The position numbers and the translations under genes were made by a program. The notes under the pieces were generated by a model. That model had not been told where the DNA came from. It saw only the letters and a list, made by a program, of their open reading frames with translations, and made no database searches. A stretch of 64,000 bases of DNA from an uncultured Gammaproteobacteria bacterium (GTDB lineage: Bacteria > Patescibacteriota > Microgenomatia > Daviesbacterales > UBA10151): assembly GCA_964405655.1 (NCBI GenBank), contig CAYOOO010000004.1, forward strand, positions 9,013 to 73,012, read 5' to 3'. Of the stretch, positions 26,877 through 64,000 are shown piece after piece; the stretch's first letter is position 1; each line of letters begins with the position of its first letter.

Positions 26877-28313
26877 ATGCTCAGGCTTCCTACACTAATT
26901 GTTGTTTTTGCCTTTACTATCAGGATTTTATATGCGCTTTATTCACATGATTTTTGGTTAGACGAAGCCTTTAATTTCTTTATCTCTCAAAATGAACCCA
27001 AAACTATTATTTATGCTTTATCTTTTGATAACTGGCCACCTCTTTATTCACTCTTTATGCACTACTGGCAAAAGATTTCAGAAAATTACTTCTGGCTGAG
27101 ACTACCCTCGGTTATATTCGGATCTCTGCTGTTAATAATTATCTATCAAACTTCTAAAAAGTTATTTAATGTTAGTATTGCCTTAGCTGCAATCCTTCTT
27201 GCCTCAGTCTCACCTGCTCTTGTCTACTTTTCAGCTGAAAACCGACCGTATTCACTATTTACACTCCTTACCAGTTTGACAGTTTTACTGTTCTTAAGGT
27301 TAAGAGATAAAGAGTCATTTATAAACTATTTGCTTTTTGTCATCTCTGCAATTTTGACAATTTATACCCACTACTTTGGTCTTTTATTGATTTTGGCACT
27401 AATTGCCTCCTCGAAATTTACCTCTTTTTTAAAGCTAAAGTTCGAGAATATTTTTTCTGCCTTAGCAATAATTATTTTAGCCTCAAGTCCATGGTGGTTT
27501 TATAGTTACTTAAAACCTCATCCAGAGTGTCTTTGTTTACCACCGTTACCGGCGATACTGGCTACTTTCGGTTTTTTTGCAATTGGAGGTAGCGGATTGA
27601 TTAATTTAAAGCATTTTTTCCAAGTTCAAACTCCACTCTTTATTAAGTTGTTTTTAGGTGTATTTATTGCGATATCCACTTTTCTTTTTTTTAGAGGGCT
27701 AAAAAAATTATCAAATAGAAAAGTCCTGTGGCTTTACTTAATTATCTTTTCTTCAATATTATTGATCTTAGTTTTATCTCTCTTTTTTAATATTTTTTCA
27801 GTCAGAAGCTTGATTTTTCTTATTCCGATCTACTTAATTGTAATCGCCATAGCTCTTGACAAGATGGGTAAATTTATTTATCTAAACTTAAGATTTAGAT
27901 TATTATCAATATACTTTGTTACTTTACTAATCATCTTGATAATAACTGTCCAAAGACCATTTTTTAACTTAGAGCCACTTAAGCAGATGTCTGACAAATT
28001 ATCCCAGCTAGACCGACCTCAAACTGCTATCATCCATGCAAATATCTACACCTATTTGCCTGCAAAGTACTACTACCCTACCTCTCGCCAGTCTGTTTTA
28101 AAACCATCTCTGCCTGAGCAATTGTCACATTCACTTAATATCCAAATTCTTGATCAAAAAGTATTGAAAGAAAGCTCACAAATAGTCTTGGTATATGCAA
28201 ATGACCGTTATGATAAACAAAGCTTTGATAATCTTAGAACTATCCTAGTAAATATTAAACATAAATCCGCGAAACATTCTTTGGGAAAGATAAACCTAGA
28301 AATATTTGAATAA
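26877..28313 (+). CDS. GT-C fold membrane glycosyltransferase (ArnT/PMT_2-like)
   Basis: First loop has FWLDEAFNF (a DE motif after TM1). More than 10 TM helices over 478 aa. Confidence 0.55.
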   Translation: MLRLPTLIVVFAFTIRILYALYSHDFWLDEAFNFFISQNEPKTIIYALSFDNWPPLYSLFMHYWQKISENYFWLRLPSVIFGSLLLIIIYQTSKKLFNVSIALAAILLASVSPALVYFSAENRPYSLFTLLTSLTVLLFLRLRDKESFINYLLFVISAILTIYTHYFGLLLILALIASSKFTSFLKLKFENIFSALAIIILASSPWWFYSYLKPHPECLCLPPLPAILATFGFFAIGGSGLINLKHFFQVQTPLFIKLFLGVFIAISTFLFFRGLKKLSNRKVLWLYLIIFSSILLILVLSLFFNIFSVRSLIFLIPIYLIVIAIALDKMGKFIYLNLRFRLLSIYFVTLLIILIITVQRPFFNLEPLKQMSDKLSQLDRPQTAIIHANIYTYLPAKYYYPTSRQSVLKPSLPEQLSHSLNIQILDQKVLKESSQIVLVYANDRYDKQSFDNLRTILVNIKHKSAKHSLGKINLEIFE

Positions 28314-38557: not shown

Positions 38558-39256
38558 ATGAAGCTTTCTATAATAATTCCGGTTTATAACGAAGAACAAA
38601 CCGTTGGTCAGGTCATATCGAAAATCAGCAAGTTAGAGTTAGGTAAAATTACTAAAGAAATTATTGTTGTTGACGATGCTTCTACAGACAAAAGTAAAAG
38701 CATAATTAATGAACAAAAAAAATTAAATCCCAATACACTTAAGGTCTATATCTCTATAATTAACCTGGGAAAAGGAGCGGCAGTTCGCTTTGGTTTAAAG
38801 TATGCAACTGGGGATATAATCATTATTCAGGATGCGGATTTAGAATTAAATCCAGCGGAATATCCCAAATTGATATCACCAATTATTGAAAATCAAGCTG
38901 ATGTAGTTTATGGCAGCAGGTTTAAGGGTTTTAAAAATGAAAATATTCCTCTTAGAACAATCCTGGCAAATAAATTTCTGGTCATTTTAACTAATATTTT
39001 GTTTAAGGGTCATTTAACAGATATGGAAACCGCTTATAAAGTTTTTAAAAGCTCTATAATAAAAGATGTCAACTTACGCTGTGTCGAATTCGATTTCGAA
39101 GCAGAAGTCACAGCCAAAATTCTTAAGGGTGGGTATAAAATAGTCGAAATTCCGATTGAATATAAACCACGAACTCCGAAAGAGGGTAAGAAAATGACTT
39201 GGCGGCATGGCATTGAGGCGATTTATACATTATTTAAATATCGTTTTTTTGATTAG
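38558..39256 (+). CDS. GT2 polyprenol-phosphate glycosyltransferase (DPM1/ArnC-like)
   Basis: LSIIIPVYNEEQTV...VVDDASTD...IIIQDADLE (DxD). Short (232 aa) soluble GT-A typical of Und-P/Dol-P sugar synthases. Confidence 0.7.
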   Translation: MKLSIIIPVYNEEQTVGQVISKISKLELGKITKEIIVVDDASTDKSKSIINEQKKLNPNTLKVYISIINLGKGAAVRFGLKYATGDIIIIQDADLELNPAEYPKLISPIIENQADVVYGSRFKGFKNENIPLRTILANKFLVILTNILFKGHLTDMETAYKVFKSSIIKDVNLRCVEFDFEAEVTAKILKGGYKIVEIPIEYKPRTPKEGKKMTWRHGIEAIYTLFKYRFFD

Positions 39257-40495
39257 TAAATTATTTATTATCAAAAGATAGATCGATGTAGCTGCAAAAA
39301 ATAAGCTTCTAGCTAGATTTTGAAGATCTATACCAGGCTTCTGCTGGGGATTTATCATATAAGATGGTGTAAAAGTTTGAGTTACTTGAGGTGTAACATT
39401 CTGGAACAAACCTAAGGTCTTAAGGGGAATAAATAAACCAACTGAAAGATCCGCTGAGGAAAACATGAGAATTATCAACCAGCAGCCAAATAAAATAGCT
39501 GGCAAATAAAAGTTCTTCAACTTACTTAAAACCAGCTCAATAACTATAAATGGAGTAACCCACAAAAACCACTGAACATGGATCTTAATTAGGCTAAACA
39601 AAATCAGTAATGTGCTTAAATAACCTTGCCAAAGCTTAACTGTTTGAGCCTTAAAAAAGAAGAACAGGTAATACATTAGAAGAATAGTAATTACAGGAAA
39701 GATCACAAAGTCTTCAGCAAGAAAAATCTTACTTTCTAAAATTCTTAAATTATAAGGAGAAAATAGGACCATCTGCTCAAAACCAGCAGAATTTAAAAAA
39801 GGCCAAATAGTGAATACTATTGGGGCTAAACCTAAAAATAGATAATAAATTTTATTCCAATTATTTTTAACTGGGATTAGAAGCATTAAAGGCAAAAAGA
39901 GCAAACCAAAAAATTTATATGCTCCGCCTACCCCAATTGCCAAACAGGCAAGCGCCAATCTTTTTCTACTGGCAAGATATAGTCCTAAAACTGCAAAAAA
40001 AGTGGGGATTAAGTCCAAATTCCCCAAGGCCAAAAGATAATAAGATAATGGGTTGAACAGCCAAAGAAGTAAAGCAAGTCTCTTTTGAACAAGGCTCTTA
40101 AAATATTTCCAAATTAAATATCCTGTTCCTAAATCAAAAAATAAATATATGAGCTTGTACCAGAATATATGCCAGATAACGTCCGTTCGATTATAAATTC
40201 CAAATAGGTTATTAGTCATACTGTCCAAAAAGCTTTGACTTGTAAATGGACTAATTATCTTTGTCCAGATTGCAAAAGTATATAAAGTTAACGGCGGATA
40301 TGGGAAAAAGGAAGTGGTAAAACTTTTAACTAAATTATGATCTTTAGGCAGTGATAAGTAAAAATCATAGATATTAAATATTCCCTTATCTGCAAATAAG
40401 TGGGAGGCGATGACTATATCCCATAAATCTGAATGAGCTGTAATAGACAGCAAAATAACTTTTAAAACTATTGCAAATATAATTGCTTTTTTCAT
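39230..40495 (-). CDS. Polytopic membrane protein, GT-C-like (possible mannosyltransferase-type)
   Basis: 421 aa, with more than 10 TM helices. Confidence 0.4.
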   Translation of the reverse strand: MKKAIIFAIVLKVILLSITAHSDLWDIVIASHLFADKGIFNIYDFYLSLPKDHNLVKSFTTSFFPYPPLTLYTFAIWTKIISPFTSQSFLDSMTNNLFGIYNRTDVIWHIFWYKLIYLFFDLGTGYLIWKYFKSLVQKRLALLLWLFNPLSYYLLALGNLDLIPTFFAVLGLYLASRKRLALACLAIGVGGAYKFFGLLFLPLMLLIPVKNNWNKIYYLFLGLAPIVFTIWPFLNSAGFEQMVLFSPYNLRILESKIFLAEDFVIFPVITILLMYYLFFFFKAQTVKLWQGYLSTLLILFSLIKIHVQWFLWVTPFIVIELVLSKLKNFYLPAILFGCWLIILMFSSADLSVGLFIPLKTLGLFQNVTPQVTQTFTPSYMINPQQKPGIDLQNLARSLFFAATSIYLLIINNLLIKKTIFK

Positions 40496-40496
40496 C

Positions 40497-41366
40497 TTAT
40501 GAATTCCTGGCTATGAGCCCAATACTTCCGACTGGGAATGGAATTTTAAAATCAAGCCAGTTTGGAAACCTTAAGTATCTTAAATAGGCAAATTTTCTAC
40601 CACCATAAGCGATAGTCAAGGTAATCAGTTGTTTAAGCGAATACCAGCGAATATCATCAGAATAAAAATCTATATCCTTGAAGTTAGACTTTAACAGAGC
40701 AATTTTAAGAGCCTTTTCGTTCCAGAAGGTTAAATGCTCCTGATGTTTATAAGAAAACCAGTTATTCTTTAATAATTTTTTCCACAAGCTTTCTGAGTTT
40801 GGGGTAGTTATTAACACTATCCCATTTGGTCTTAAAATTCTAGATAAATTTTTAAGAAAAGTTATTGGATATTTTATATGTTCAATTGTTTGGAATAAGA
40901 CAACAGCATCATAGTTTTTCTCTTTAAGAGAAACATCTCCGACCTCCCCAATTAATACTTTTACTTGATATCTTTTCCAAGCCATTTTTTTTGCTGATTT
41001 ATTTATATCTATGCCCAAAACTTGGTAATTATTTTTCCGAGCCAAATGTAAAAATACGCCTATACCACAACCCACTTCTATTAGTCTCCCCCTATTGGGA
41101 AGATATTTATTTAATCTTCTTAATTGGTCACTAAAATAAACTTCAAAGGAGCTTAGAAACAAATCATAATCTGGGTAACCTTTAGTCAGGCTTTCTTTTT
41201 GACTAAAGTAATCTCTTGTATAGATTTTCTTAATCTGCTGATCACTAGGAAGAGAATCTCTCCACTCTAAATGGCAGTTTTGACAGACTTTAATTTTCTC
41301 TTTATTAGTAAGATTTTTTGTCAAAATCTTACTCCCCTCACAAACAATACACTGACTATTCTTCAC
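40497..41366 (-). CDS. SAM-dependent methyltransferase with N-terminal zinc-ribbon
   Basis: CIVCEGSKI...CQNCHLEW, then LIEVGCGIGVF motif I and FQTIEHI. Confidence 0.7.
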   Translation of the reverse strand: MKNSQCIVCEGSKILTKNLTNKEKIKVCQNCHLEWRDSLPSDQQIKKIYTRDYFSQKESLTKGYPDYDLFLSSFEVYFSDQLRRLNKYLPNRGRLIEVGCGIGVFLHLARKNNYQVLGIDINKSAKKMAWKRYQVKVLIGEVGDVSLKEKNYDAVVLFQTIEHIKYPITFLKNLSRILRPNGIVLITTPNSESLWKKLLKNNWFSYKHQEHLTFWNEKALKIALLKSNFKDIDFYSDDIRWYSLKQLITLTIAYGGRKFAYLRYLRFPNWLDFKIPFPVGSIGLIARNS

Positions 41367-43063
41367 TTCTCCTCCTGCTTTAGCTGATAAATACTGATAA
41401 CTGGCCCAAATTGAATATCTTTTAAAAACTTAACTTTATCTAAAGCTTGATAGTCAACTCTCCATCCATGAGGATCATTATCAAAAACAAATGTCGGAGT
41501 AAACTGATTAACTAAAAGGTAATTTTTATTAAGTGAGCTCAAAAAAGTTTTATCAAAGCCTTGATTATCTCTATGAGCCCAGCTTGAGACTATTAAATAT
41601 TCTACCCCTTGAACTTGATAAGAGTCTGTATCAACAATTTTTTGATTGCTGGTTTGGTCCAAAGTTGGCACTCCTATCAGATCATAACCAACCTTATCCT
41701 GACTTACTTCTAGTGTTGCCAGTAAATTTTGGGCAGGTAAGCCTAAACTTTGAGCTTGATTGTAAAGCGCTAAAAGTCTGAACTTACTTAAAACTAGTGG
41801 CGGGCCTTCAAAAGATGGAACGCTATCCCCGACCGCTCCCTCAACTACTATTTTGGAATTTGCAGGTATATTTTTTTCAATCCAGTTCTTTGAAATAGTC
41901 CTGGTATCTGGTTGGGAGATCAAAAAGTCAAACTTTAAGGTTCTTATTAAGTTATTACTGCTTATTAGAATAATTATTATGAGTATTAGATAAAAGTTTT
42001 TAACGATTCGCCAAAGAAAGACTGCTGAAGTTAAAGATAAAAAGGGTATCATCGCCACAGCCCATCTGGGAAAATTACCTCCAGCTAAAATAATTCCCAA
42101 GAAAATAGTTAAAACTGAAAATGAAGCTATAAACGCTTTTTTCCCTAGTTTACCTGAGATACTAGTGATTAAAGCTAACAGGTAAATAAATGAACTACTC
42201 AAACCAAAGGCTGGGAAAAGCTGATCTTTAATATAGCCAAACCAGACCGGCTGATAATTTAGGCTTGGCCCAATCATTCTATGCTTCAAAACTAAGTCAA
42301 TGTTAGATTGTATGAATCTTTGGCTGTCTAAAATAATATAGGGATTAGTAGCTATATAAGCTAGAATAGACAAAACCAGTACGCCAATTAACTCTTTTAT
42401 GTTTATTTTTTTAAAAAAATACAGTAATAGAACAATCAAACTAATGGGAAAGTAGATAATTTTAGTTGAGACAGCCAAACCTAAAGATATTCCTAAAAAA
42501 ATTAATGAACGTTTCCTTTCTTTGACTGTTTCAAAGACTTTTAGAACAAAATAAAAAGTTACCAGCAAGAATAATGAAGATAGTGTCTCTTCTTTTATAT
42601 AATGAGATTCTTTAGTAAATAAAAAACTGGAAGATAACAAAAACAGGGCTGTTAAAGCAGTCTTTTGGCCGAAAAAACGGTTTCCAATCACTAGAACCAG
42701 ACTGGCACAACCTAAGCTTACTAAAAGTGAAAAAATCCTTCCCAGGATTATAAAAATGGTTGGGTCTGAAAGATAAGCCACATAGAAACTAAAAGGAGAG
42801 TGATAAATCCCCAAGATCAAGCCTAAAATATATTGAATAAAAAAAACGGGAATTAGAAGGTATGAAAGTAAGATCGGGTGAAGGTAGGTATCAGGCTTAA
42901 GAAAGTTGGAAGCTGCATAAAAGGCTGAATAGATTAGCTTGCCCTCATCAGGGTGATAGATAAAAGGCAAACCAAAATTAATCCCCCATATTCTGGAGAT
43001 TAAAAACCAAAAAAATATGGCCAATATAACTTTGTTAATTTTGAACCTGTGTAATTTGACCAT
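41363..43063 (-). CDS. GT-C fold glycosyltransferase, PMT_2/ArnT (family 39-like)
   Basis: GLPFIYHPDEGKLIY first-loop motif (YHPDE), characteristic of the dolichyl-/undecaprenyl-phosphate-sugar-dependent GT-C family. Length is 566 aa. Confidence 0.55.
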   Translation of the reverse strand: MVKLHRFKINKVILAIFFWFLISRIWGINFGLPFIYHPDEGKLIYSAFYAASNFLKPDTYLHPILLSYLLIPVFFIQYILGLILGIYHSPFSFYVAYLSDPTIFIILGRIFSLLVSLGCASLVLVIGNRFFGQKTALTALFLLSSSFLFTKESHYIKEETLSSLFLLVTFYFVLKVFETVKERKRSLIFLGISLGLAVSTKIIYFPISLIVLLLYFFKKINIKELIGVLVLSILAYIATNPYIILDSQRFIQSNIDLVLKHRMIGPSLNYQPVWFGYIKDQLFPAFGLSSSFIYLLALITSISGKLGKKAFIASFSVLTIFLGIILAGGNFPRWAVAMIPFLSLTSAVFLWRIVKNFYLILIIIILISSNNLIRTLKFDFLISQPDTRTISKNWIEKNIPANSKIVVEGAVGDSVPSFEGPPLVLSKFRLLALYNQAQSLGLPAQNLLATLEVSQDKVGYDLIGVPTLDQTSNQKIVDTDSYQVQGVEYLIVSSWAHRDNQGFDKTFLSSLNKNYLLVNQFTPTFVFDNDPHGWRVDYQALDKVKFLKDIQFGPVISIYQLKQEEK

Positions 43064-44576
43064 TTTTATAAATTAAAATCAGATCTTTTGAGGAAACAAA
43101 ATCTGATAGAAAATCCACTGTTAGAGTATTTTTGTCTAAAAGTCTGGCTGTAAAATATTCATTACTAACCACTGCTTGTCCATTTGAGTTGATCTGAGGA
43201 TGAAAGAGTACAAAACCAGATTCGCTTTCTAAGCTTAAACTGCGAGCATTCAAAAAACTGTAACTTGAGCTTACTCCAACTGGACTTGGTGTTAAGATAA
43301 TCTGGCTTAAAAGTTCTTGTCCTACCATAAACTCGACTGCTTCCTTAAGGTGAGTCCTGTAGATAATGGCCCCGTTAATACTATCTGGAATGTTAATCAG
43401 AAAAACTCTATCTATAGTCCTTGGCATATCTTTTAAAAGTAATAATAGTTGGTCAGCTATCTGCTTGGAATAAAGACCAGCTATTTTCCAGTTGTAATTC
43501 TGATTGTAAATATAGAAGGAACTTAATAATACATAGCAAGAAATAGCCATCCAAAAAAATACACGCAATGTTTTCTTGTATTTTTGTAGATGGAAACTAG
43601 CTAATTTTATTATTAAAAAAGAAAGCATGATGGAAATAAACACGCCTGGTAGATAAAGTTGTCGAAGTTGTGTTGGTGTATTGGCTGTCGGCAAAAAAGA
43701 AATCCCGATGAGGAGATAAAGCAATAAAGATATTGATTTGAGTGAGAATTTTCCTAAAAACAACAGTCCAAGAAACCCAACTAAATAAATTACAAATACA
43801 TTGGAAAGAGCAATAATTTTCAGATGAGGTGCAAGCGAGTAAGGATTTAAAGTGCCTAAGGCTAAAAATCTTAAAAGGAAGTAAAAGAGAAATACTAATA
43901 TCAAGCTTAAAAAGATATGTCTGTATTTCAAAAGTAACTTACTTATTACTTTCTTTTTGTCTAAAATTAAGACTATAACCAGAGAAGCTACGGGAAAAGT
44001 AACAGCAGATTCCTTGCTAAATAAAGCCAGAAGAAAAAGGATCCAGGTAACTAAAAGCCACAACTTTTTCTTCGATTCGACGTACTGTATTAGAGTAATT
44101 AAAGCAGCTAGATAAAAAGTAGTAACTAGCAAATCATATCTGCCTCCGACGCTCCAGGCTATTGCTTCAGTCTGGAAAGGAAAGATGGTAAAAAGTAAGC
44201 TTGAAGTAGCAGCCAAAAAAACATTTTTTTTAAATAGTAAATATACAAATAAGCTAACTAAGGCTATGTTAATAAGATGAAAAATTAAACTTGTTAAATG
44301 AAAAATTACAGGTGTCATTCCTAACAAAACAGTATCTAGCCAAACCGTCCAACCTACCATGGGTCTAAAGTAAGGCGGTAAAGAGATGCCTGCAAGATCT
44401 GGAGGTAGAAATAAGCGAAAAGAGTTGATTAAATCCAAACCTCTTACCCTAGTCCACCATTCATAGTCTTCTCCTACAAAATAAGCATCTAAAATTCGCT
44501 GGTATAAAAATACTGCCACTAAACAAGATGCAACGACACATAAGAGTAGGTTTCTTTTTTTAGCTGAATCCACCAT
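43035..44576 (-). CDS. Polytopic membrane protein, GT-C-like
   Basis: 513 aa with more than 10 TM helices and an acidic first loop (FVGEDYEWW). Confidence 0.4.
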   Translation of the reverse strand: MVDSAKKRNLLLCVVASCLVAVFLYQRILDAYFVGEDYEWWTRVRGLDLINSFRLFLPPDLAGISLPPYFRPMVGWTVWLDTVLLGMTPVIFHLTSLIFHLINIALVSLFVYLLFKKNVFLAATSSLLFTIFPFQTEAIAWSVGGRYDLLVTTFYLAALITLIQYVESKKKLWLLVTWILFLLALFSKESAVTFPVASLVIVLILDKKKVISKLLLKYRHIFLSLILVFLFYFLLRFLALGTLNPYSLAPHLKIIALSNVFVIYLVGFLGLLFLGKFSLKSISLLLYLLIGISFLPTANTPTQLRQLYLPGVFISIMLSFLIIKLASFHLQKYKKTLRVFFWMAISCYVLLSSFYIYNQNYNWKIAGLYSKQIADQLLLLLKDMPRTIDRVFLINIPDSINGAIIYRTHLKEAVEFMVGQELLSQIILTPSPVGVSSSYSFLNARSLSLESESGFVLFHPQINSNGQAVVSNEYFTARLLDKNTLTVDFLSDFVSSKDLILIYKNGQITQVQN

Positions 44577-53523: not shown

Positions 53524-55650
53524 TTATTTATTATGTAAGCTGTTCTGTTTTAATTTAGAAATAATCTTATTACCAAACAAAGGATATGAGAGGAAAAGAC
53601 CTAGGGTTAAAAAGCTTATTAAGTAGCCCAACCAAACCTGCCAGGTAGTTGAGTGCTTAAGAATAATGTCTATTTGGCCAAACTTTTTAGGTTCAAGAAG
53701 GATAAAACCTAACGGGTCCTTGGAAACCCTAGCTGAAACTTTATTGGCTTTATCATAAGCGCTCCAGCCTGAGTCAGCTGTCATCTGGACGAGGATCCCT
53801 TCCCTGTTATCAATCTTGCCTGTAATCTGGTAAGTGCTGTTGTTAATGACTTTAAAATCTAATTGATTTGGGCTGGAATTTTCCAGCCAATTAATATACC
53901 TTAAAATTCTTTCCTTATCGTCAGCCTTAACAGGAACCTTAATATTCTTAATTTGATCTAGATTGATTGATTTAGATAGGGATTCCTTTTTTAAGGGAAT
54001 CTGATAAATAATATCTGCACCCAGCTTGTCTTTGACAGGATAATTCTCAAAGCGTTCAAAGTTTTTAGTATCATGGTAAAGCTCAGTCGAGCCTGGAGTA
54101 GTTATAACAGCATATTTGGCATTGATTATTCTTAGCCAAGCATCAGCGATTTCTGGGCTTTTACCATTGGTTAACTGATAATAGATATGGTCTGGCCATC
54201 TATTAGTTGAGGCCTGATAAAGACCACCTCTTAACTGCCAGATATTACTAAACCAGTTTAAATAAAATCCATAGTTTCCAGATATAAAAACTCTCTCCCC
54301 TTTTGATAGGTCAACATCTTCTTTCAAGGCTTGGGCTACTTTAAATTCAGAAGTTTTTTCTAAATCAACCACTTCTGAGGCTGCTTGATTTGCGGTTTTA
54401 ACAAAGGGTTTGATATAAGTTGAAGAGAAGACTAAAAATACTATTACCAAAGCCCAAGTAAAAATATTAGCCATCTTCCATTTCCTCTCTAAAAGTCTAG
54501 AAATCATTCCTACAAATATACCAATCAAGAGGGCCATACTAAGATCAACCTCAGCGTTATACCTTAAAGCCTGAGGCAAAAGTTCTATTCTATAAGCAGA
54601 CTCATCTGGAGGAGCTGACAAGTAATAGGTTGCCACAACAGTAAACATCAGCAAAAACCAGACTAGGCTGGAGGCTAAACCAAAGTCTTTGATAAAGCGG
54701 CGGATTAGTATAAAAGCTATGAAAATAGCCACAAAGCCTGCTATCCATCCCCAAGGAAACGAAGAGATTAAGATATTACTTGTACCTCCACCTTCTCTAA
54801 AAAAGGTTGATAAAAAAGTTAAGTTATACCAAAAAGAGATTAGGCCTAAAGAAGCAACTCCGGCCAGAATAAAAAGTAGTAAGTTTTTGCTGCGGTTTGT
54901 ATCTGACTGACAAAATTTAACAAAAGCCATCGAAGCCATCAAAAGAATCGTGGCAAATAGACCAATCGCATTCGTTAGACCAACCAAACCAACAAAGATG
55001 GCTGTTAAAAACAGATTAACTCTTTTGGGCTTTTCTAAAAATCTGGCAAAAAAGAGTCCAGCTATTGGAATAAAAATTAGCGAAAACAGGTGAGGTCCTT
55101 CTCCCCATCGAACCAGAATAGTAAATCTTCTGGGATCCCAGAAATCTGCTGAAAACCTATCTTGAGCGACTTCTCCACTTTCTAGAATAAAGTAGAAGAT
55201 AGTTGGCAAGACTGAATATAAAACACCTGCTACTACTCCTCCAATTAGTCTTTTTGATAGCTGCCAAGCCAAAAAAAAGAGCGAAACTGGGCCAACAATA
55301 TAGGCAAAGCCAGTTAAGTTGCGGTAAGCCTCCCAAAGCTCGAAGCCCCAAAATTTATGCAGCATTGCCTCAAGAACTGGCAAAAGCGGCGTATAAAAAA
55401 CATGGAAAGGAAATCCTAGATACCAAAAAGGAGCCCAGGATGATCCACCAACTGGCAGACCAAAATCCACCAAAAATCTGCCCATTGAGACATAGGAAAC
55501 CTCGATTGAGCCTATATTAGCTGGTCCATTTTTTCCCAGCCAGCCTGAGATCATCTGGTAATTTAACCAATAGAGAAAAATCACAACTAAGATCGCAGAG
55601 ACAAAAGTTATGAGGACGCTTAAAACCTTCTTTTTAGAAAATTGTGGCAT
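53524..55650 (-). CDS. Polytopic membrane protein with C-terminal extracytoplasmic domain (same family as the giant paralogs)
   Basis: 708 aa. N-terminal ~12 TM, then NWFSNIWQLRGGLY, the counterpart of the W..PL.RGY motif of 32484/35530. C-terminal TM. Confidence 0.45.
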   Translation of the reverse strand: MPQFSKKKVLSVLITFVSAILVVIFLYWLNYQMISGWLGKNGPANIGSIEVSYVSMGRFLVDFGLPVGGSSWAPFWYLGFPFHVFYTPLLPVLEAMLHKFWGFELWEAYRNLTGFAYIVGPVSLFFLAWQLSKRLIGGVVAGVLYSVLPTIFYFILESGEVAQDRFSADFWDPRRFTILVRWGEGPHLFSLIFIPIAGLFFARFLEKPKRVNLFLTAIFVGLVGLTNAIGLFATILLMASMAFVKFCQSDTNRSKNLLLFILAGVASLGLISFWYNLTFLSTFFREGGGTSNILISSFPWGWIAGFVAIFIAFILIRRFIKDFGLASSLVWFLLMFTVVATYYLSAPPDESAYRIELLPQALRYNAEVDLSMALLIGIFVGMISRLLERKWKMANIFTWALVIVFLVFSSTYIKPFVKTANQAASEVVDLEKTSEFKVAQALKEDVDLSKGERVFISGNYGFYLNWFSNIWQLRGGLYQASTNRWPDHIYYQLTNGKSPEIADAWLRIINAKYAVITTPGSTELYHDTKNFERFENYPVKDKLGADIIYQIPLKKESLSKSINLDQIKNIKVPVKADDKERILRYINWLENSSPNQLDFKVINNSTYQITGKIDNREGILVQMTADSGWSAYDKANKVSARVSKDPLGFILLEPKKFGQIDIILKHSTTWQVWLGYLISFLTLGLFLSYPLFGNKIISKLKQNSLHNK

Positions 55651-56100
55651 TCAGCTAAGTATCTTCTCATCAATCATAGCAAATAACATAAAAGAAATAA
55701 TCAGCGTAATCACCAACCCAAATGGGTCAAATAACCCAATATAGTTTCGCATTGGGACAAAAAAACTTTTAAAGACAAAAACGGATAGCAGCGTGGCTAT
55801 AAAGATTAGTAAGGCCAACAACACTTTTAAGAAAAAGTCAACCTTTTCTGAGTTGGTTTTTTTAAGAGCGTAACCCTGATTTATGAGATAGCTTTTGAGA
55901 ATCTGTCCCGCTGGTCCTTTTTCCTTAAGAAGATAGGAACAAGCAACGCACTTTTCAGTAGAAGTTAACTGATGCTCAATCTGTTTGACATGACTAGTAT
56001 CCTCAGACTTTAAAGCTTCAAACAGATCTATTAAATGGCTTTGACAGATATATAAACCCTTACCAGACGGGCTCTTCACTTCTTTTTCTTTTCTGCTCAT
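55651..56100 (-). CDS. Small membrane protein with N-terminal Cys/His cluster
   Basis: 149 aa. N-terminus has CQSH...CVAC, followed by two TM helices. Confidence 0.3.
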   Translation of the reverse strand: MSRKEKEVKSPSGKGLYICQSHLIDLFEALKSEDTSHVKQIEHQLTSTEKCVACSYLLKEKGPAGQILKSYLINQGYALKKTNSEKVDFFLKVLLALLIFIATLLSVFVFKSFFVPMRNYIGLFDPFGLVITLIISFMLFAMIDEKILS

Positions 56101-56137
56101 AACGTTTTATGTAATTAAAAATTGGGAAGAACTAAAG

Positions 56138-57598
56138 CTAGCTTACCCTCTCCTCAGGCTGTTTGATATTGGCAATCCTGGGAAACAGGAAGATAATTAT
56201 CAAAAAATAGATCAGGGTGGCTAAAGATAGGCTTTGAGCTACAGTAACAAAGGTCCTATCAGGACTTTGTGGTCTGGCTATACCACCAACTCCTAAAGCT
56301 TTTTGAACTAAAATTGGTGCCTCACTGACTTCTTTTTGGGCAGCCTTAACACTAAAGTAGCTACTCATTCCCAGCATTACAATCAGAGCAGTTGAGATTA
56401 GGATCAGGAATGAGAAGATAACTGTACTTTTGAGCCTAATCAAATAGTTTTTAATCAGAAACTGAGAAAGAGGAGTAAATAAGACTGCTACTGCAAAAGA
56501 GGTAGCTACAGAAAGTTCGATTAGATATCTTTCAGCAGTAAAAATCCCAGTCACTCTAAGGTTTTTACTAATCCAATAGAGGCCAAGATAGATCGATAGC
56601 ATGACAATTCCTAGGAAAAATGGCTGGAGTTTAACCCGGCGGTCAAAAATTAGATACAGAAGCGTTCCGACAACTGGAACCAGTGGTATAGTTATTGGCA
56701 AAGAACGAAGCAAACCATTTATTGCGAATTCAACATGTTTTAAGCTCATAATAGTCTGTAAGTTTGAGGGTAGATACCAAAAAAGAGAAAGCCCAAAGGC
56801 TGAAGCTACGACAAAGATTAGCCTGATAATTTTAACTTTTAAGTTTCCTTGAAAAATGCCAGCCACTGTCAGTATCAAATAAAGTATCATCAAGTTAAAT
56901 GTAGCAAAGGGGGAGATAATTGCTATTGCAGCAGTTCCTAAGGCTGTAGCAATACCAGCTGTAGATAAACCAGAGGATAAGAAAGACTGTAAACCTATTA
57001 AAAGCAGCGGAATAAAGGAGAAAGCTAAGGCATGAGCACCGTCGCCATTTAAGATTGCCCCAATCAAAGGTAATCCTTGTTTTAAAAAAGGATTTGGCAG
57101 GACAAATAGCAAAGTCGCCAAAAAAGCAATTGAATCATGTTTTAAAACATTTCTTCGAACAAACAGATAGAAGCTTAAAGGGGCTGTAGATAAAGCTAAG
57201 ACCGTCAGGACTAAGAAAAATTGGTACCTTGTCAATATATTCAACCCTTCAAGAAAATTAGATACCATCATCAAAGCTTGAGATGAGGCGAAAGCTGGAG
57301 TTAAGTTAAGCTGAAAAATGGGCATAACGAAAAAGAGATTAAGTACATAAATAGTTACTAAGAAGACCAGGCTGACTATGTTTAGATCTCCTCCCTCACT
57401 CCAAAGAAAGTTTTTCTCAATATTATTGGCAAAACTGGTATTACCAAGTCTATTGGAAAAACGAATACCTCTTTTTAGATCAGTTGTTAGATCTGGTTCT
57501 AAATTTTCAGGATTTGAACTATTATTTTGTTCAATCAGCTTAGGATCAGATACAGTTTGATCTTCCTTGACAGGAAGCGTTTTGGGCAGTTTTTTCAT
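56138..57598 (-). CDS. Polytopic integral membrane protein, hypothetical
   Basis: 486 aa with more than 10 TM helices and an N-terminal polar region. Confidence 0.35.
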   Translation of the reverse strand: MKKLPKTLPVKEDQTVSDPKLIEQNNSSNPENLEPDLTTDLKRGIRFSNRLGNTSFANNIEKNFLWSEGGDLNIVSLVFLVTIYVLNLFFVMPIFQLNLTPAFASSQALMMVSNFLEGLNILTRYQFFLVLTVLALSTAPLSFYLFVRRNVLKHDSIAFLATLLFVLPNPFLKQGLPLIGAILNGDGAHALAFSFIPLLLIGLQSFLSSGLSTAGIATALGTAAIAIISPFATFNLMILYLILTVAGIFQGNLKVKIIRLIFVVASAFGLSLFWYLPSNLQTIMSLKHVEFAINGLLRSLPITIPLVPVVGTLLYLIFDRRVKLQPFFLGIVMLSIYLGLYWISKNLRVTGIFTAERYLIELSVATSFAVAVLFTPLSQFLIKNYLIRLKSTVIFSFLILISTALIVMLGMSSYFSVKAAQKEVSEAPILVQKALGVGGIARPQSPDRTFVTVAQSLSLATLIYFLIIIFLFPRIANIKQPEERVS

Positions 57599-57658
57599 AA
57601 ATTTGAAGCTTACAACTAATCTTAGTCATATATTTTAGGAAATATCAATAGGTTATTT

Positions 57659-59491
57659 TCAATAGTCTTCTGTATCAACAGAGCTCTTTCTTAAAATTTT
57701 TGTTAACAAAGGATAGAAATAATCATAAAAAACAAATACAACAAACAATATCAAAAACAAAAACATGAGTGGTATTAACCAACTAACTCTAAAAAGCTGA
57801 AATTTTAATAAATAGTTTTGTTTTCCAGTTTGCTTGGGAATCAAAACCATATTACCAAGGCTATCTGAAGTAAGCTTGCCTTGACCAGATACAATATCCC
57901 AACCTGGATGGTAGGTTATAGCTAGAGAAATAATCTTACTTTTATCCAAATCTGCCTCAATCTCAATCTGGTTTGGTCTAAGAACTACCTGGTGCAAATT
58001 ATCTTTCAATTTTGATACATACTGATTTACCCTAATATTATCTGATCCATCTTTAGGAGGCTTTAAATTTAATAAACTTTTATCAGCAATCCTGACTAAG
58101 TTACCAGAGTCTAACTTAAATATAAAATCTCCTTGCTTATTACCAATAGTTTGCCAGTTTTTAAACTTATCAATAAATCTAAAATCTTTAAAATATTCCC
58201 TAGATTCTTCTTGATTAACCAAGATAAAATTTGTTCCTAAGGCTTCGAGCCACTTTTTAGATAGATCTCCATCTGCTTCTTCCCTGATTTGATAGGCAGC
58301 ATGACGCCAAAAAGGATGAACTGAAGCCTCATCCACTCCCCCTCTGAGCTGCATTAGATTTAATTTAGAATTTAGCCAAAATACAGCTGAACCTGAAGTA
58401 AATATCCGCTGATTAGCAGGCACATCTTTCAATAAACCCAGGATATCTTTCTGATAGGTTAAGTTTTTTGAATCTGTCCAAGTTTTAAATATTTGAAAAT
58501 AGATTAAAACTGACAGCCCAAAAACTAAAACCAAAGCTAATAAGCCCCATTTTTTAACTCTGTCCTTAGCAAAAAAACTAGATAAAATTAGTGCTAACCC
58601 AAACTGGATCTCGCTTGTAAAACTAATCCAATCTATCAAAAAATCAGGATCAGAAATAAATCTAAATAGGCTTAAGAACCCGAAAGCAGTTAGAAAGAAA
58701 AGACTAAATTTTGATAGAAAAGAAAGCTTGATCTTTTTTAGCTTGACTACCCACAAGGCAATTATTATTGGTAATAGGTTAAAAAGGAATGAAAAAATCA
58801 GTTTGATTAAAGAAAAAAGTGGCTTCCCACTCAAGGAAGGATTTTTTAAGATAGCCCACCAAACCTCGCTAGTATACCAAAAAGAGATAGTAACTAAGGC
58901 TAAACAAATTAGTAAAATTATTTTAAAAATTAGATATACTCTTAGGGATTTTTTAACTTCTATAGTTAGAAAAAGGCAGATTAAACCTATCAAAATAGTC
59001 AATAATGACGAAATATTAATTAATACAGCAAATACTACTAAAATATATAAATATAGATCATTTTTTAAGTTATTTTTAGTTAAAAAGTTACAAAATTGAT
59101 AAAAAATCCAGATAGAAACTGATAAAGCTATCATTTGCAAACCACTAGAAAAACTAAGCAAAAAGTAGCTTAAAGGAAGGGTTAAAAACAACACTTGTGC
59201 TAGTATTGATTGTCTTTTTTCTGCTCCTAACCTTTTTGTTAACTTGTATACTCCCAAACTTCCAAAGATTACAGCCAAAAACATCAAAATAAAATAGCCT
59301 GTGGTTGTATCAAGTCTTAATAAGCTTTTAAAAATCCATAAACTAATTGGTATAACTGGTCCAATTAAAAAGTTAAAGGGATTGCCAAGGTACCAGTTGG
59401 GATACCAGCTGAAGTCGGGAAAATTTTTAATAAAGAAGTCTGATAAAGCAATTACCGAGGGTATTAAGGATGTTTGGGGAATATTAAGCAT
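57659..59491 (-). CDS. Polytopic membrane protein, paralog of 53524..55650
   Basis: 610 aa. FWLNSKLNLMQLRGGVDEAS motif. C-terminal TM LIPLMFLFLILFVVFVF. Confidence 0.45.
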   Translation of the reverse strand: MLNIPQTSLIPSVIALSDFFIKNFPDFSWYPNWYLGNPFNFLIGPVIPISLWIFKSLLRLDTTTGYFILMFLAVIFGSLGVYKLTKRLGAEKRQSILAQVLFLTLPLSYFLLSFSSGLQMIALSVSIWIFYQFCNFLTKNNLKNDLYLYILVVFAVLINISSLLTILIGLICLFLTIEVKKSLRVYLIFKIILLICLALVTISFWYTSEVWWAILKNPSLSGKPLFSLIKLIFSFLFNLLPIIIALWVVKLKKIKLSFLSKFSLFFLTAFGFLSLFRFISDPDFLIDWISFTSEIQFGLALILSSFFAKDRVKKWGLLALVLVFGLSVLIYFQIFKTWTDSKNLTYQKDILGLLKDVPANQRIFTSGSAVFWLNSKLNLMQLRGGVDEASVHPFWRHAAYQIREEADGDLSKKWLEALGTNFILVNQEESREYFKDFRFIDKFKNWQTIGNKQGDFIFKLDSGNLVRIADKSLLNLKPPKDGSDNIRVNQYVSKLKDNLHQVVLRPNQIEIEADLDKSKIISLAITYHPGWDIVSGQGKLTSDSLGNMVLIPKQTGKQNYLLKFQLFRVSWLIPLMFLFLILFVVFVFYDYFYPLLTKILRKSSVDTEDY

Positions 59492-60092: not shown

Positions 60093-60953
60093 TTAAGGTT
60101 TTGAAAGAGTTAGATCTTCGATTGGACCAATAAAAATACTGTTATTTTTTCTGGTGGCAATTCGCTCAGGATTCGTCTCAACCTTTAAAACTCCGTTAAT
60201 AAAGATCTTCTTGACCCTCTTCTCACCTGTAAAATCCCAGGTCAGGGTAACCTCGAATGTTTTACCCTGATAATCTGATCCTAAATCTGCATCCGGTTCC
60301 GGATCATCTGATCCTGAATGACCGTTATTATCATAGGTATCAAAAACTAAAAGTCTCCCTGAACCTGCAATAATAAATGCACCCCTGTTATCAGAGTTAT
60401 TATAGCTTGCCAAAACCAAGGTTCTATCTTTATCCCCTCCCTCAATAGGCCAATCAGCTTTAACGCTAAATTTAATAGTGCCTTGTTTAATATTAAACAT
60501 TTCATTCCCGCTGTAGGCTTTCAAATTACCAATATCCTTAATACCAAATAACTGAATCTGCTCCCGACGAGGCTGGAAATCATCCGGGACTGTAAAGTTA
60601 TTAGCTAGGCTTTGGGATAGTTCAGATTGCTCTTCTTTTTTAACGCCACCTTGATTGTTTTGGACAGAAGAAGATGGTCTAGGGGTTGATTTTGCTGATG
60701 AATCGGTTGCACTCTTGGCTGAGGAGGTACTGTTTGGTAGATTTTGACCCTTATCTAATAATTGACTGTCTAAGAATTCTCTTGGGACTGACGGGTTTTT
60801 AATTCCTAATAAAACTCCAACAAAAACTATTATTGCCATTATATCAATCACCATCAAAAGTCTCTTAATTTTTTTGGAAGTCAAAAAGTTAGCTTTTTGA
60901 TAGTTTAAATTAGGTTTTTGATGTTTAAAATGTTTTTGGCTAAAATTTGTCAT
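60093..60953 (-). CDS. N-terminally anchored extracytoplasmic protein with Ser/Thr-rich linker
   Basis: 286 aa. TM MVIDIMAIIVFVGVLLGI, then a low-complexity STSSAKSATDSSAKSTPRPSSS linker and a beta-rich domain. Confidence 0.35.
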   Translation of the reverse strand: MTNFSQKHFKHQKPNLNYQKANFLTSKKIKRLLMVIDIMAIIVFVGVLLGIKNPSVPREFLDSQLLDKGQNLPNSTSSAKSATDSSAKSTPRPSSSVQNNQGGVKKEEQSELSQSLANNFTVPDDFQPRREQIQLFGIKDIGNLKAYSGNEMFNIKQGTIKFSVKADWPIEGGDKDRTLVLASYNNSDNRGAFIIAGSGRLLVFDTYDNNGHSGSDDPEPDADLGSDYQGKTFEVTLTWDFTGEKRVKKIFINGVLKVETNPERIATRKNNSIFIGPIEDLTLSKP

Positions 60954-63900
60954 AATCTTTTACTCTCCCTTAATTTCTTTAGTAAGCCTGGTAAAAACGG
61001 CACCAGAAGCACCAAAACCAAGGTTTTTTCTGGCAAAGTACCAAACTCAAAGTTAGACCCCTGCCTAAGTACCACACCGATCTGGCTAGTCCCGTAGCCA
61101 GACAGAGGCCCTGAGATATTACCTAAATCTCCGGCCGTAAATTTATAAGAGTATGTTGATCCCCAAGAGATTGAGCTGGCAGCGCTGTCAATAAAATAGG
61201 CCTGCTCACTGGTATCCATAATTCCATGGGCATAGATCCTGGTATTTTGAGAATCATAAGTTAGGGAAACCTGGGTTAGGTTAGTCTGGCTGGTAAAAGG
61301 GGCTGTTAAACTGGTAACTGAAGGGAAGGCATTGGTGGTTGTGACATCGGCAAATTGAACAGTTGGTACTCCGGCGCTATCTGTATCGTAATAAGCAAAT
61401 TTACAATCTGTACTGCTTGGACAATAGACTGCTCCTTTAAATCTGGGGCCGGGCATGGCTTGAACTGATCCAGAAGAACAGCCGGCATTATCGCAATCTA
61501 CAAAATTAAGTCCGTAGTCATTGATATCTGAAATATAGGTTAATTTGCAATCAGTGGCAGACGAACAATACATCGAGACAGAGGGGTAATTATTGACATC
61601 TTGCTTAGCACTATTTGGCCCATCATCAATATCTCCAGCCGTACTATCAATCGTTGTAACAGAATCAGTTGCAGAACAAGTAGTCGTGCTGGTAGAGCAA
61701 TCTATAAAGAAAACATCGCTAGTACTGGGATCATTATAGACAATTTTGCAGTCAGAGGAAGCAAAACACTTGATTGACATAGCCACTGAGTTATCTACCC
61801 CTCCAACAGACGCATCCAAGGTTGTGCTTGTGCCTGTTGAGCAGCCAGCATTACCGCAGTCCCTAAAAATTAAATCCGAACTAGCCTGAGTGTGCCAGAC
61901 TAATTTGCAGTCAGTTACTCCCAAGTTACAATCCATCGAGACAAAAACTCTAGCAGCGCCGGCGTTCCCATCAACGTCAGTTGTGGCATTAGGCACGCTG
62001 CAAGATCCATCATTGCAATCAAGGAAGGTGACATCATTTGTGACAGGATCATTATATAAAACCCGGCAATCTGTACTTCCGCCTGTACAATCAACATCAC
62101 TATGGGAAGTATCAGCCGCCCCTCCTAAATCACTATCAAGCGTGCTGGTAGCGTCTGTAGTCGAACAAGCTGAATTTGAACAATCAATCATTTTTAGTAA
62201 AGGGGTGGCTGTATCCATGTCATCACCATAGACAACTTTGCAGTCTGTGCTTGAGACGCACCAGATTGAGGGATTGGCAGCATCAGAAGAATCACCAATA
62301 TCAGAATCTAGCGTTGTGGTAGTGCCTGTTGAACAAGTTGCATCATCACAATCCCTAAAAATCAGCTTAGGGGCGGTTGTGTCCAAATCATCTGTATAAA
62401 CAAACTTACAGTCAGTAGCTGACACGCAGTACATATCAATATCTGATAAACCATCATAACCAATTGCTCCTGTATCGCTGTCGATTGAGGTCTCGGTAAA
62501 ATCAGTTGTGCAGCATTTATAAAAATTGGTCGAGGTTGTGCCTGAGACTGATAAAACCCAGACAGTTGTTCCATCGGTGGTGACAGAGTAAACATTATCT
62601 GTCACTGAGGCGATGGTTAGATTGTTAGTTGTCCAATCAACTGTTCTGGCATTTAACTCAGAGTAAGATAGATCTCCGTCCTGAAAAACCATCCCAACTC
62701 TGGAAGCACCATCAATGTTTATTACCACTGGCCGATCACTGGCTGTTAGACCATTACCAAAGGTAATCAGAGAGGTGGTGACAGCAGTAGAAGTACAAGT
62801 TCCGTCAAGTCCAGTCACATAATTGACTCCAACAGAGGTTCCTGTTGAGGTATCAGAGTAAGCCATCACTGCAGTCCTCCCATCCACAGCTACCACACTA
62901 GGCATATAGGTTGTGCCCAGCGAGGATGCGACAATAGTACATTTTGTACCTAAGGCATCTGAAGCAGCTAAATCAATTATCTTGCCCTCAATACCAGTAG
63001 TGGTTGTCGAGTCCTGCCAAACAGCAACTATGCTTGAAGCGTTATAGGAGACCGAAATGTTATTATTATCTGCATCTGCTGAATCAATATCAACAGCTGC
63101 TGCCCAGCTCGAGCCACCATTAGTAGATTTTTTATAAGAAACGCTTTGACCGTCAGCATAAAAGGCATACCAGTTAATTGTCCCTGAAAGATCTGTGTAA
63201 TAAATCTTCATCGAGATATAGTCAACAGAGGCGGTATTTGTTCCCTTAGTCCCTGAGGTATCTCGATAGGAAAATCCAATTCCAAAATTGGCATTAGTCA
63301 CATCTGATCTGCTCAAACTCACCCCCCAAAGCTGTTTGTTGCCTCCATAGGTGATAGTAGCCTCAGTTGTAGGTATAGCTGCGTTAGTACTTTTATCATC
63401 GCCAACTAACCTTCCCGCCTTGTATAGCCTGATAGAATTCTCCTGTAAACCAGCTGCAGCTGCTTTCCTCTCGACATTGACCTCGATACCATCAATTACC
63501 GCAGTCGATGGTATAGTGGAGAAATCAAAGTTAGTCACCTTAAGATAGCCTGATGTGTATTGACCGGCAGTAGTGACCACGGCTGTTGCATAAGTATTAT
63601 TACTAGATATAGCGTTAGAGGGATTGGTCCAAGAGACGTACCCGATAGTTCGATCGCTCTCAAAACTAGCTCCGGCAATATGTCCAACTGTACCTGTAGA
63701 AGAAGAGACTGCTACCACCTTCCTTTGCATGCTGCCATAGCTAGTTTCCCCCTCAGTAATTCCGCCTGAAACTATGACTGTTGGGTCAATCACGATTGGA
63801 AATTCTCTCTTGCTTTCTTTTAACCATTCTAAGGCTTTCCTATTGATATGCTTTGTTAGCTTATAACCAAGCTGCTGTTTTTCCATAGTGATAGAAAGAT

Positions 63901-64000
63901 CATTATTTTTAACTTGTTTGGCATCTTGGGCAAAAGGAGCGGCATATTTGAAAATCTCTTGACCATCTTCGGTAAAGATCCCGAAGGTATCAGGCCTATC
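60950..64000 (-). CDS. Large surface protein with tandem four-cysteine repeats and a C-terminal LPEKT-TM-basic sorting-signal-like tail (5' end outside window)
   Basis: The reading frame stays open upstream of the first ATG (63886) to the window edge. There are about 7 repeats of C-x4-DCK-x15-18-DC-x4-C. C-terminus is TLPEKTLVLVLLVPFLPGLLKKLRESKRL. Confidence 0.6.
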   Translation of the reverse strand, partial: DRPDTFGIFTEDGQEIFKYAAPFAQDAKQVKNNDLSITMEKQQLGYKLTKHINRKALEWLKESKREFPIVIDPTVIVSGGITEGETSYGSMQRKVVAVSSSTGTVGHIAGASFESDRTIGYVSWTNPSNAISSNNTYATAVVTTAGQYTSGYLKVTNFDFSTIPSTAVIDGIEVNVERKAAAAGLQENSIRLYKAGRLVGDDKSTNAAIPTTEATITYGGNKQLWGVSLSRSDVTNANFGIGFSYRDTSGTKGTNTASVDYISMKIYYTDLSGTINWYAFYADGQSVSYKKSTNGGSSWAAAVDIDSADADNNNISVSYNASSIVAVWQDSTTTTGIEGKIIDLAASDALGTKCTIVASSLGTTYMPSVVAVDGRTAVMAYSDTSTGTSVGVNYVTGLDGTCTSTAVTTSLITFGNGLTASDRPVVINIDGASRVGMVFQDGDLSYSELNARTVDWTTNNLTIASVTDNVYSVTTDGTTVWVLSVSGTTSTNFYKCCTTDFTETSIDSDTGAIGYDGLSDIDMYCVSATDCKFVYTDDLDTTAPKLIFRDCDDATCSTGTTTTLDSDIGDSSDAANPSIWCVSSTDCKVVYGDDMDTATPLLKMIDCSNSACSTTDATSTLDSDLGGAADTSHSDVDCTGGSTDCRVLYNDPVTNDVTFLDCNDGSCSVPNATTDVDGNAGAARVFVSMDCNLGVTDCKLVWHTQASSDLIFRDCGNAGCSTGTSTTLDASVGGVDNSVAMSIKCFASSDCKIVYNDPSTSDVFFIDCSTSTTTCSATDSVTTIDSTAGDIDDGPNSAKQDVNNYPSVSMYCSSATDCKLTYISDINDYGLNFVDCDNAGCSSGSVQAMPGPRFKGAVYCPSSTDCKFAYYDTDSAGVPTVQFADVTTTNAFPSVTSLTAPFTSQTNLTQVSLTYDSQNTRIYAHGIMDTSEQAYFIDSAASSISWGSTYSYKFTAGDLGNISGPLSGYGTSQIGVVLRQGSNFEFGTLPEKTLVLVLLVPFLPGLLKKLRESKRL

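Follow-up and report, generated by a model that had tools for sequence, protein, structure and literature searches.

Candidate GT-C glycosyltransferase paralogs beside an archaeosortase-like gene and a GT2-synthase fusion in Microgenomates

The GT-C fold of glycosyltransferases is already known, as are exosortase systems that travel with glycan genes, such as those of the XrtG- and XrtP-associated GT2 families in NCBIfam. The active sites of GT-C enzymes such as PglB and AglB follow a pattern, in which an acidic first outside loop is combined with an acidic or histidine-containing next outside loop and with an arginine near the late transmembrane (TM) helices. Some GT-C proteins work as pairs of paralogs, for which Pmt1-Pmt2 and EmbA-EmbB are precedents. 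Two described families come closest in sequence to the proteins treated here. PF10131 belongs to the GT-C clan CL0111 and has no known function (PMC7801869), and YfhO is the GT-C enzyme of the three-component CsbB/GtcA/YfhO systems of Firmicutes, in which it adds sugars to lipoteichoic and wall teichoic acids (PMC5836110, PMC8035078). Microgenomates are uncultured, small-genome bacteria with a poorly understood cell envelope, and the literature search yielded nothing relevant on archaeosortases or exosortases in Patescibacteria or the candidate phyla radiation (CPR). Here, we analyze a stretch of 64,000 nucleotides (the window; assembly GCA_964405655.1, contig CAYOOO010000004.1, positions 9,013 to 73,012) from a genome placed by GTDB in the Microgenomatia (Daviesbacterales), in which two genes for related membrane proteins, named A and B, stand in one gene string with an exosortase-like gene. 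What is new is a large Microgenomates GT-C family without any model of its own, a fixed C-A(-B) gene arrangement with natural fusions, and a repeated association with a minimal archaeosortase-like enzyme, the C-terminal signal being carried by a partner that fuses helix-turn-helix (HTH) domains to a GT2 synthase.

Paralogy, fold and conserved residues

An earlier note, made from the letters of this DNA, had described A and B as paralogs of a giant pair (G1 and G2) elsewhere in the window, giving four members of one uncharacterised family. The positions, strand and lengths that it gave for A and B are exact, and the paralogy of the two genes is borne out; the number of members is five, given that a third small paralog, C, had been missed.

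53524-55650, minus strand: paralog A, 708 amino acids (aa)
56138-57598, minus strand: paralog C, 486 aa, TM-only
57659-59491, minus strand: paralog B, 610 aa
32484-35561, minus strand: giant paralog G1, 1025 aa
35530-38451, minus strand: giant paralog G2, 973 aa

By sequence comparison A and B are clear paralogs, far beyond chance. BLASTP aligns them over 625 columns at 23% identity (E=5e-29), and hhalign with profiles of 35 A and 14 B homologs aligns them at full length over 562 columns, with a probability of 100% and E=5.8e-61. G1 and G2 likewise align over their full length (BLASTP, 29% identity, E=3e-122). Pairwise BLASTP of the small pair against G1 stays near noise (E=0.006 for A and 0.89 for B), and the link appears at the profile level: the A family matches the giant family at 97.2% (E=4.2e-11) over 279 columns confined to the TM domain, and the B family matches it at 94.9% (E=4.4e-8) over 423 columns. 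Two comparisons of the A profile, with the MOP flippase of the window and with one of its PMT_2-type GT-C proteins, served as controls for TM composition. Both gave a probability of 0.2-0.3%, which rules out a composition-driven false similarity among TM proteins as the source of the profile matches. Resting on the TM domain and the predicted fold, the kinship of A and B to the giants thus appears real, although weaker than that of A to B. For C, the single sequence matches the A profile at 93.8% (E=1.7e-7), and a C-family profile of 21 sequences from the fetched loci matches A at 99.8% (E=1.9e-29) and B at 99.0% (E=7e-18).

The earlier note had tied the giants to the small pair through a block just after the TM region. 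Its conclusion holds, and the profile–profile comparison that it had proposed does align A and B significantly with each other and with the giants, but the block is not what carries the result. The B-giant profile alignment does pair ...NLMQLRGGVD... with ...DMPLARGYVD..., and with the post-TM regions alone this pairing is again the top B-giant alignment, but at a probability of 1.9% (E=0.026), and it is not recovered for A against the giants. As a basis for homology the block was rejected, being not significant alone. It is kept as a family signature, its Q472 and G475 (QLRGG) being 95-99% conserved in the A family.

The AlphaFold2 model of A has a predicted local distance difference test (pLDDT) score of 90.6 and a predicted template modelling score (pTM) of 0.89. 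In it, TM1 (residues 6-34) is followed by an outside loop with short helices, some 12 more helices to about residue 424, an outside domain of alpha/beta and beta-sandwich parts (about 425-669) and a final TM helix (670-707). All of the top 23 significant Foldseek matches in the PDB are GT-C enzymes with a probability of 1.00, among them STT3 of the human and yeast oligosaccharyltransferase (OST; 2e-8), AglB (4e-8), PglB, DPY19, AftD and AftA. The best structural matches are the OST proteins STT3, AglB and PglB (E=2e-8 to 1e-7, template modelling (TM-) scores 0.38-0.47), and the likeness extends to the C-terminal domain of A, which matches the isolated C-terminal globular domain of AglB (3vu0, TM-score 0.56). 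However, sequence identity to them is 11-14%, and A has one more TM helix at its C-terminus. An assignment to the OST family was rejected: WWD is absent from all five paralogs, so that none has the WWDYG motif, and neither the window proteins nor the 35 A-family members match PF02516 (STT3). DPY19 gives the best TM-scores for A (0.47-0.52), and AftD and AftA also rank high, but sequence similarity to DPY19 and to the mycobacterial AftD and AftA is not detectable, and their organisms and acceptors differ.

The model of G1 (pLDDT 79.8) agrees in that its TM part matches STT3 (8e-5) and AftD by Foldseek; an extra outside region matches non-catalytic domains of GH42 and GH164 enzymes. As modelled, A and G1 almost certainly have the GT-C fold, and the two models therefore provide an independent confirmation that the small proteins and the giants alike are GT-C proteins. 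A GT-C fold is predicted for B and C from their homology to A.

Sequence models place the family only at a distance. G1 passes PF10131 (PTPS_related; 33.8 bits against a gathering cutoff of 26.4) and G2 does not; the model is also reached by most giant homologs and by 3 of the 14 B-family members. The layout is similar, the outside domain coming after an N-terminal domain of many TM helices, but A and B miss the model, as do all 35 A-family members, none of which has a real Pfam match of any kind, and C has no outside domain. YfhO (PF09586, gathering cutoff 28.5 bits) is not matched by any window protein. Distant relatives of A give weak matches to it (19.8-28.1 bits), all below the cutoff and at the C-terminal end of the model only, and also weak matches to PF10131. 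The proteins share with YfhO their general layout, in which an outside domain lies between a GT-C TM domain and a C-terminal TM helix, and the expected use of a lipid-linked donor outside the cell, whereas no CsbB or GtcA partner occurs in the operon and three paralogs stand in a row here. Searching PDB sequences with the profiles of A and of the giants gave nothing meaningful. The A family is thus a part of the GT-C superfamily, distantly related to PF10131 and YfhO, and its general kind, called 'uncharacterised' in the earlier note, is a known one.

Searched exhaustively with the A profile, the family comprises 1749 clusters, represented at 50% identity, when the limit is set at E<=1e-3; 571 of them pass E<=1e-30. 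All named members are Microgenomates (Daviesbacteria, Levybacteria, Woesebacteria, Chisholmbacteria, Curtissbacteria and Gottesmanbacteria). The database record for the locus, with the entries HYS93_01355 and HYS93_01340, is that of Candidatus Daviesbacteria. The GT-C assignment gives a function class to a set of about 1750 clusters of 'hypothetical proteins' missed by Pfam and NCBIfam.

Residue conservation was measured over 109 distant full-length relatives of A, no two of them more than 50% identical. In the first outside loop (GSIE), which the N-terminal KKK and TM1 in the sequence of A place outside, S48 and E50 are among the best-kept polar residues (E50 is Glu in 88% and Asp in 4%). The segment G183-E184-G-P186-H187 just before TM4 is kept at 82-96%, R363 at 98%, Q472 at 95% and G475 at 99%, and E367, E435 and R453 are also among the best-kept polar residues. 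Judged from the sequence, these positions appear to be those typical of GT-C active sites, and A is probably a genuine glycosyltransferase.

Only A holds the full set of E50, the GEGPH loop, R363 and Q472/G475. B has the layout of A without TM1, with Ile at the position of E50 and with the whole GEGPH loop missing, and it keeps the QLRGG block, the C-terminal TM helix and an invariant acidic cluster of its own (R277, D281, D283 and D287). C has TM1 and no outside C-terminal domain; most of its first outside loop is missing, including the part that would bear E50, and it keeps GDGAH, equivalent to GEGPH in A, and an R-Y-x-x-E segment. The giants have Gly at the position of E184. Such losses would fit a reading in which certain paralogs, above all B and C, or even the whole set have no catalytic role and act as scaffolds, as helpers of a polymer-export or ligase-like kind or as pseudo-enzymes. 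We regard this as improbable, in view of the acidic cluster and QLRGG block kept by B, the two segments kept by C and the complete set in A.

Gene string and the sortase-like module

A, B and C belong to a string of seven co-directional open reading frames (ORFs) on the minus strand that begins at 63886, ends at 53524 and has intergenic distances of -4, 3, -8, 60, 37 and 0 bp. Besides the three paralogs it comprises:

55651-56100, minus strand: s149, 149 aa, a Cys-containing N-terminal part followed by two TM helices
59484-60089, minus strand: exosortase/archaeosortase-family gene, 201 aa
60093-60953, minus strand: p286, 286 aa, single-pass membrane protein
60950-64000, minus strand: fragment of a giant HTH-GT2 protein, its ORF listed as 60950-63886 and its frame open to base 64000

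The earlier note had placed A and B in one leftward transcription unit with the exosortase-like gene, overlapping it by 8 bp. The overlap is as it had been described, with the ATG of B at 59491-59489, the stop codon TAA at 59486-59484 and ATGCTTAA as the common string, and the operon reading stands because of this overlap and the tight spacing. The promoter and terminator scans add nothing to it: sites resembling a consensus promoter occurred at the frequency seen in shuffled sequence, and nothing like a terminator was found between the genes of the string.

The 201-aa protein passes the TIGR04178 model at 36.8 bits against a cutoff of 23 and falls just below the cutoff of Pfam Exosortase_EpsH (22.6 against 25.7). 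Together with C99, R144 and H164, which are invariant in nine homologs of 35-60% identity, this upholds the earlier call of an exosortase-like gene. No subtype model is passed (ArtC, TIGR03762, gives 27 bits against a cutoff of 100). As in the described exosortase systems (PEP-CTERM/EpsH, XrtG and XrtP with their GT2 families TIGR03111 and NF053846, and ArtC/PEF-CTERM), a Cys-Arg-His enzyme stands beside a GT2 synthase and a C-terminal signal of the type P-E-x, hydrophobic stretch and basic tail. The system differs from them in the small size of the enzyme, in its failure against the subtype models, in a signal carried on a synthase fusion and in its Patescibacteria host.

That signal is found at the C-terminus of the neighbouring HTH-GT2 giant, which reads TLPEKT-LVLVLLVPFLPGLL-KKLRESKRL. 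Homologs in many loci repeat the pattern of [VIL]PE[KNRQS], a hydrophobic stretch (PxLP) and a basic tail, and by its sequence this is apparently the cognate signal of the sortase-like enzyme, or at least a good candidate for it. The full-length giant, of 2067 aa, is found in another assembly with an identical sortase-like gene (L117:200-6403; L numbers denote loci). Its order is two transposase-like HTH domains, TM helices, a processive GT2 domain (QRMRW), further TM helices, the ectodomain and the signal. In Pfam and NCBIfam the GT2 domain best resembles PgaC/IcaA, CelA, the XrtP-associated glycosyltransferase and NodC, and against the XrtP-associated family it scores 46.6 bits where 520 are needed. 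Of 47 metagenome loci anchored on the sortase-like gene and at least 6 kb long, 30 have the same HTH-GT2 architecture next to that gene. Hence, the 'sorted protein' of the earlier note, more than a plain surface protein, is the C-terminal half of a 2067-aa GT2-synthase fusion. Since the signal-bearing partner is such a fusion, a glycan is at least as likely an acceptor as a protein.

In the version of the earlier note, the sorted proteins themselves are glycosylated; for this locus that would mean that the GT-C paralogs add O- or N-linked sugars to the Ser/Thr-rich ectodomain of the giant. The ectodomain covers about 1100 aa, is rich in Ser, Thr and Asp with four-Cys repeats of about 55 aa, and contains 25% Ser+Thr and seven N-X-S/T sites. 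This composition suits a glycosylated protein, as do the common operon, the recurrent neighbourhood and the protein-modifying activity of the nearest solved structures (STT3, AglB, PglB and DPY19, with the 3vu0 match of A). A parallel exists in archaea, where AglB glycosylates archaeosortase substrates. On the other side, no paralog has WWD(YG) or an STT3 Pfam match, the weak sequence links lead to YfhO and PF10131 and not to OSTs, and the ectodomain varies by lineage (Kelch repeats in L010) while the GT-C proteins are conserved. No YfhO structure is among the PDB matches, so that the first rank of the OSTs may simply depend on which structures have been determined. Weighing these points, we find glycosylation of the ectodomain protein itself rather unlikely, though it is a serious rival.

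Several smaller observations concern the same module. Two sortase-like genes lie close together or in tandem in L039, L042, L060/L061, L075, L079 and L102, sometimes each with its own HTH-GT2 giant, which suggests duplication of the module. In the Chisholmbacteria locus L010:1-6933, a 2311-aa Kelch-repeat protein with an IPER-type signal (VIPERLWLLFGAAPFLPLLLKRRRK), which is not a GT2 fusion, lies directly upstream of C-A, and no sortase-like gene was found within 10 kb. Homologs of p286 stand between the giant and the sortase-like gene in L012, L041, L056 and L065; p286 has no family match and shows a faint resemblance only to the PGF-pre-PGF domain (E=0.069). The stop codon of s149 abuts the start codon of A, and s149 homologs occur between C and A in the Daviesbacteria-like loci L001, L002, L003, L008, L022 and L029; s149 has no match in Pfam or NCBIfam.

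Linkage across genomes and the proposed mechanism

With the A profile, 36 A-anchored loci were fetched from species-representative genomes. In about 30 of the 31 informative loci the gene immediately upstream of A is C; in the exception, L016, it is B. Often B precedes C, and giants are adjacent in L001, L014, L016 and L032. Natural fusions join A to A in tandem (P0167, P0168, P0178, P0182, P0183 and P0193) and A to a giant (P0188, P0215 and P0239). The C-A pairing and the fusions therefore argue for physical or stepwise cooperation of the paralogs and predict a heteromeric GT-C enzyme. As in Pmt1-Pmt2 and EmbA-EmbB, paralogous GT-C proteins are encoded together; the differences are that C has no outside domain and that the hetero-oligomer, established in those precedents, is a prediction here. 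A separate kind of fusion adds a C-terminal S-adenosylmethionine (SAM) methyltransferase to A (P0199, P0204 and P0282), and stand-alone methyltransferases occur near the GT-C genes of the window.

Of the 36 A-anchored loci, 9 have a sortase-like gene within 10 kb, compared with 0.5-2.4 expected from random placement at 1-5 sortase-like copies per Mb, and an A, B, C or giant-type gene is found in 18 of 80 sortase-anchored loci (1.3-5.2 expected); the loci are phylogenetically related and include some duplicates, and the Poisson figures overstate the significance of both counts. A sortase-like gene, a GT2 giant or both occur in 12 of these 36 loci; among the 9 with at least 5 kb on both sides, the number is 6. 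A GT-C paralog is found in 14 of the 31 sortase-anchored loci of at least 10 kb. Co-occurrence at the level of loci, which bears on a check named in the earlier note, is thus seen in both directions. Directly downstream of the sortase-like gene stands C in L052, A in L053 and L099, B in L058 and L077, C-A in L094 and B in the window. The order changes from giant, p286, sortase, B, C, s149 and A in the window to C, A and then giant and sortase in Curtissbacteria, and L012 and L026 carry the sortase module on the other strand. The neighbourhood link is therefore frequent, tolerant of rearrangement and well above chance, but not obligatory.

Its non-obligatory nature favours a rival account, in which the paralogs are housekeeping glycosyltransferases or polymerases of a wall polymer with no specific tie to the sortase, drawn together by the clustering of envelope genes in small genomes. 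Several well-covered Daviesbacteria C-A loci with 10 kb of flank (L001, L004 and L006) have neither a sortase-like gene nor a GT2 giant nearby, the more distant sortase homologs (~41% identity, L080-L098) have no GT-C paralog nearby, and the whole 64-kb window is a glycosylation island. Against this stand the 4- to 20-fold enrichment over random placement in both directions, the direct adjacency or overlap with the sortase-like gene in at least seven distinct loci and with different paralogs, and the survival of the neighbourhood through rearrangement and strand inversion (L012 and L026 compared with the window). We consider the housekeeping account unlikely and a functional coupling of the GT-C proteins to the sortase/GT2 module somewhat probable. 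The functional linkage of sorting and glycosylation proposed in the earlier note is thereby strengthened by the recurrent neighbourhood and the GT-C fold, whereas its acceptor stays a matter of prediction.

The explanation that we prefer, and hold at a little under an even chance, is that A, B and C make up a GT-C glycosyltransferase hetero-oligomer that modifies an acceptor in the cell envelope beside the sortase/GT2 module. It starts from the observed paralogy, fold, conserved residues, gene neighbourhood and fusions, and from these it predicts the catalysis, the donor, the acceptor and the complex. A would associate with C and often with B, and would be the catalytic subunit, a role proposed for it because it alone keeps the full conserved set; B and C would be partners or specialised copies. 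Transfer would take place on the outer face of the membrane, from a polyprenyl-phosphate-sugar donor to the envelope acceptor. The favoured acceptor would be a glycan made and extruded by the neighbouring HTH-GT2 synthase, or a glycan on its ectodomain, decorated in a manner akin to that of YfhO-type enzymes on teichoic acids. The PEK-type signal at the C-terminus of the same giant would be processed by the small archaeosortase-like enzyme. Lipid-linked sugar chemistry is likely to be at hand, given that the window holds a GT2 protein resembling AglJ, PpgS and ArnC, a MOP flippase and other glycosylation genes.

A glycan acceptor is favoured because YfhO, the sole sequence-level relative with a known role, decorates glycopolymers, because the ectodomain varies by lineage and the GT-C proteins do not, and because the GT2 synthase is the constant element of the neighbouring module. 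Even so, that the acceptor is a glycan rather than a protein is a tentative proposal.

Several points weigh against the hetero-oligomer explanation as a whole. The enzymatic role is read from sequence, structure models and gene context; A and B have no Pfam match, and their sole NCBIfam match, TraQ, is far below its cutoff. The closest solved structures, OST and DPY19, modify proteins and not glycans, and no polyprenyl-phosphate-sugar synthase is encoded inside the B-C-A operon. B, without TM1, and C may be inactive, as neither has an equivalent of E50. To these are added the relatedness of the loci and the Daviesbacteria loci without the module, both described above.

A more far-reaching version, which we think doubtful, is that the locus encodes an undescribed Microgenomates machine, in which a minimal archaeosortase-like enzyme processes the GT2 fusion and the B/C/A hetero-oligomer builds or decorates the glycan or glycoprotein that this enzyme attaches. 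If true, exosortase-type sorting and polysaccharide synthesis would be directly and physically connected in it. The minimal sortase-like module also offers a compact system for asking to what exosortase-type enzymes attach their substrates and why they are found near glycan genes.

The wider window

Nearly all of the window from 23155 to 53307 is a glycosylation island. Several GT2 and GT4 genes, a MOP flippase, four methyltransferases, a carbamoyltransferase and an AlgX-like SGNH protein are found in it, together with the following:

26877-28313, 41363-43063 and 43035-44576: three PMT_2-type GT-C proteins
38558-39256, plus strand: short GT2, 232 aa, divergent from G2
39230-40495: weak GT87-like protein

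The 232-aa GT2 matches Pfam Glycos_transf_2 at E=2e-33, and its nearest NCBIfam families are AglJ, PgfS, PpgS and ArnC, all below their cutoffs. It resembles polyprenyl-phosphate-sugar synthases in sequence and is a possible maker of a lipid-linked donor.

Far from the gene string, a 352-aa ORF at 14363-15421 (minus strand) has no family match; its C-terminus consists of a TM segment rich in Ala and Gly, RRRR and a Pro/Tyr tail (…PEIPGWAWVAAGVAAVAAAGAAVWAFIRRRRATPPYYP). The GC content of the window is highest around this ORF (40-43% compared with ~34%). Many public metagenome-assembled genome records with this Microgenomates-type locus (L003, L005, L006, L008, L012 and others) are titled 'uncultured Gammaproteobacteria bacterium', and the fragment L034 is filed under Nanoarchaeota. 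These records are probably mislabelled or mis-binned.

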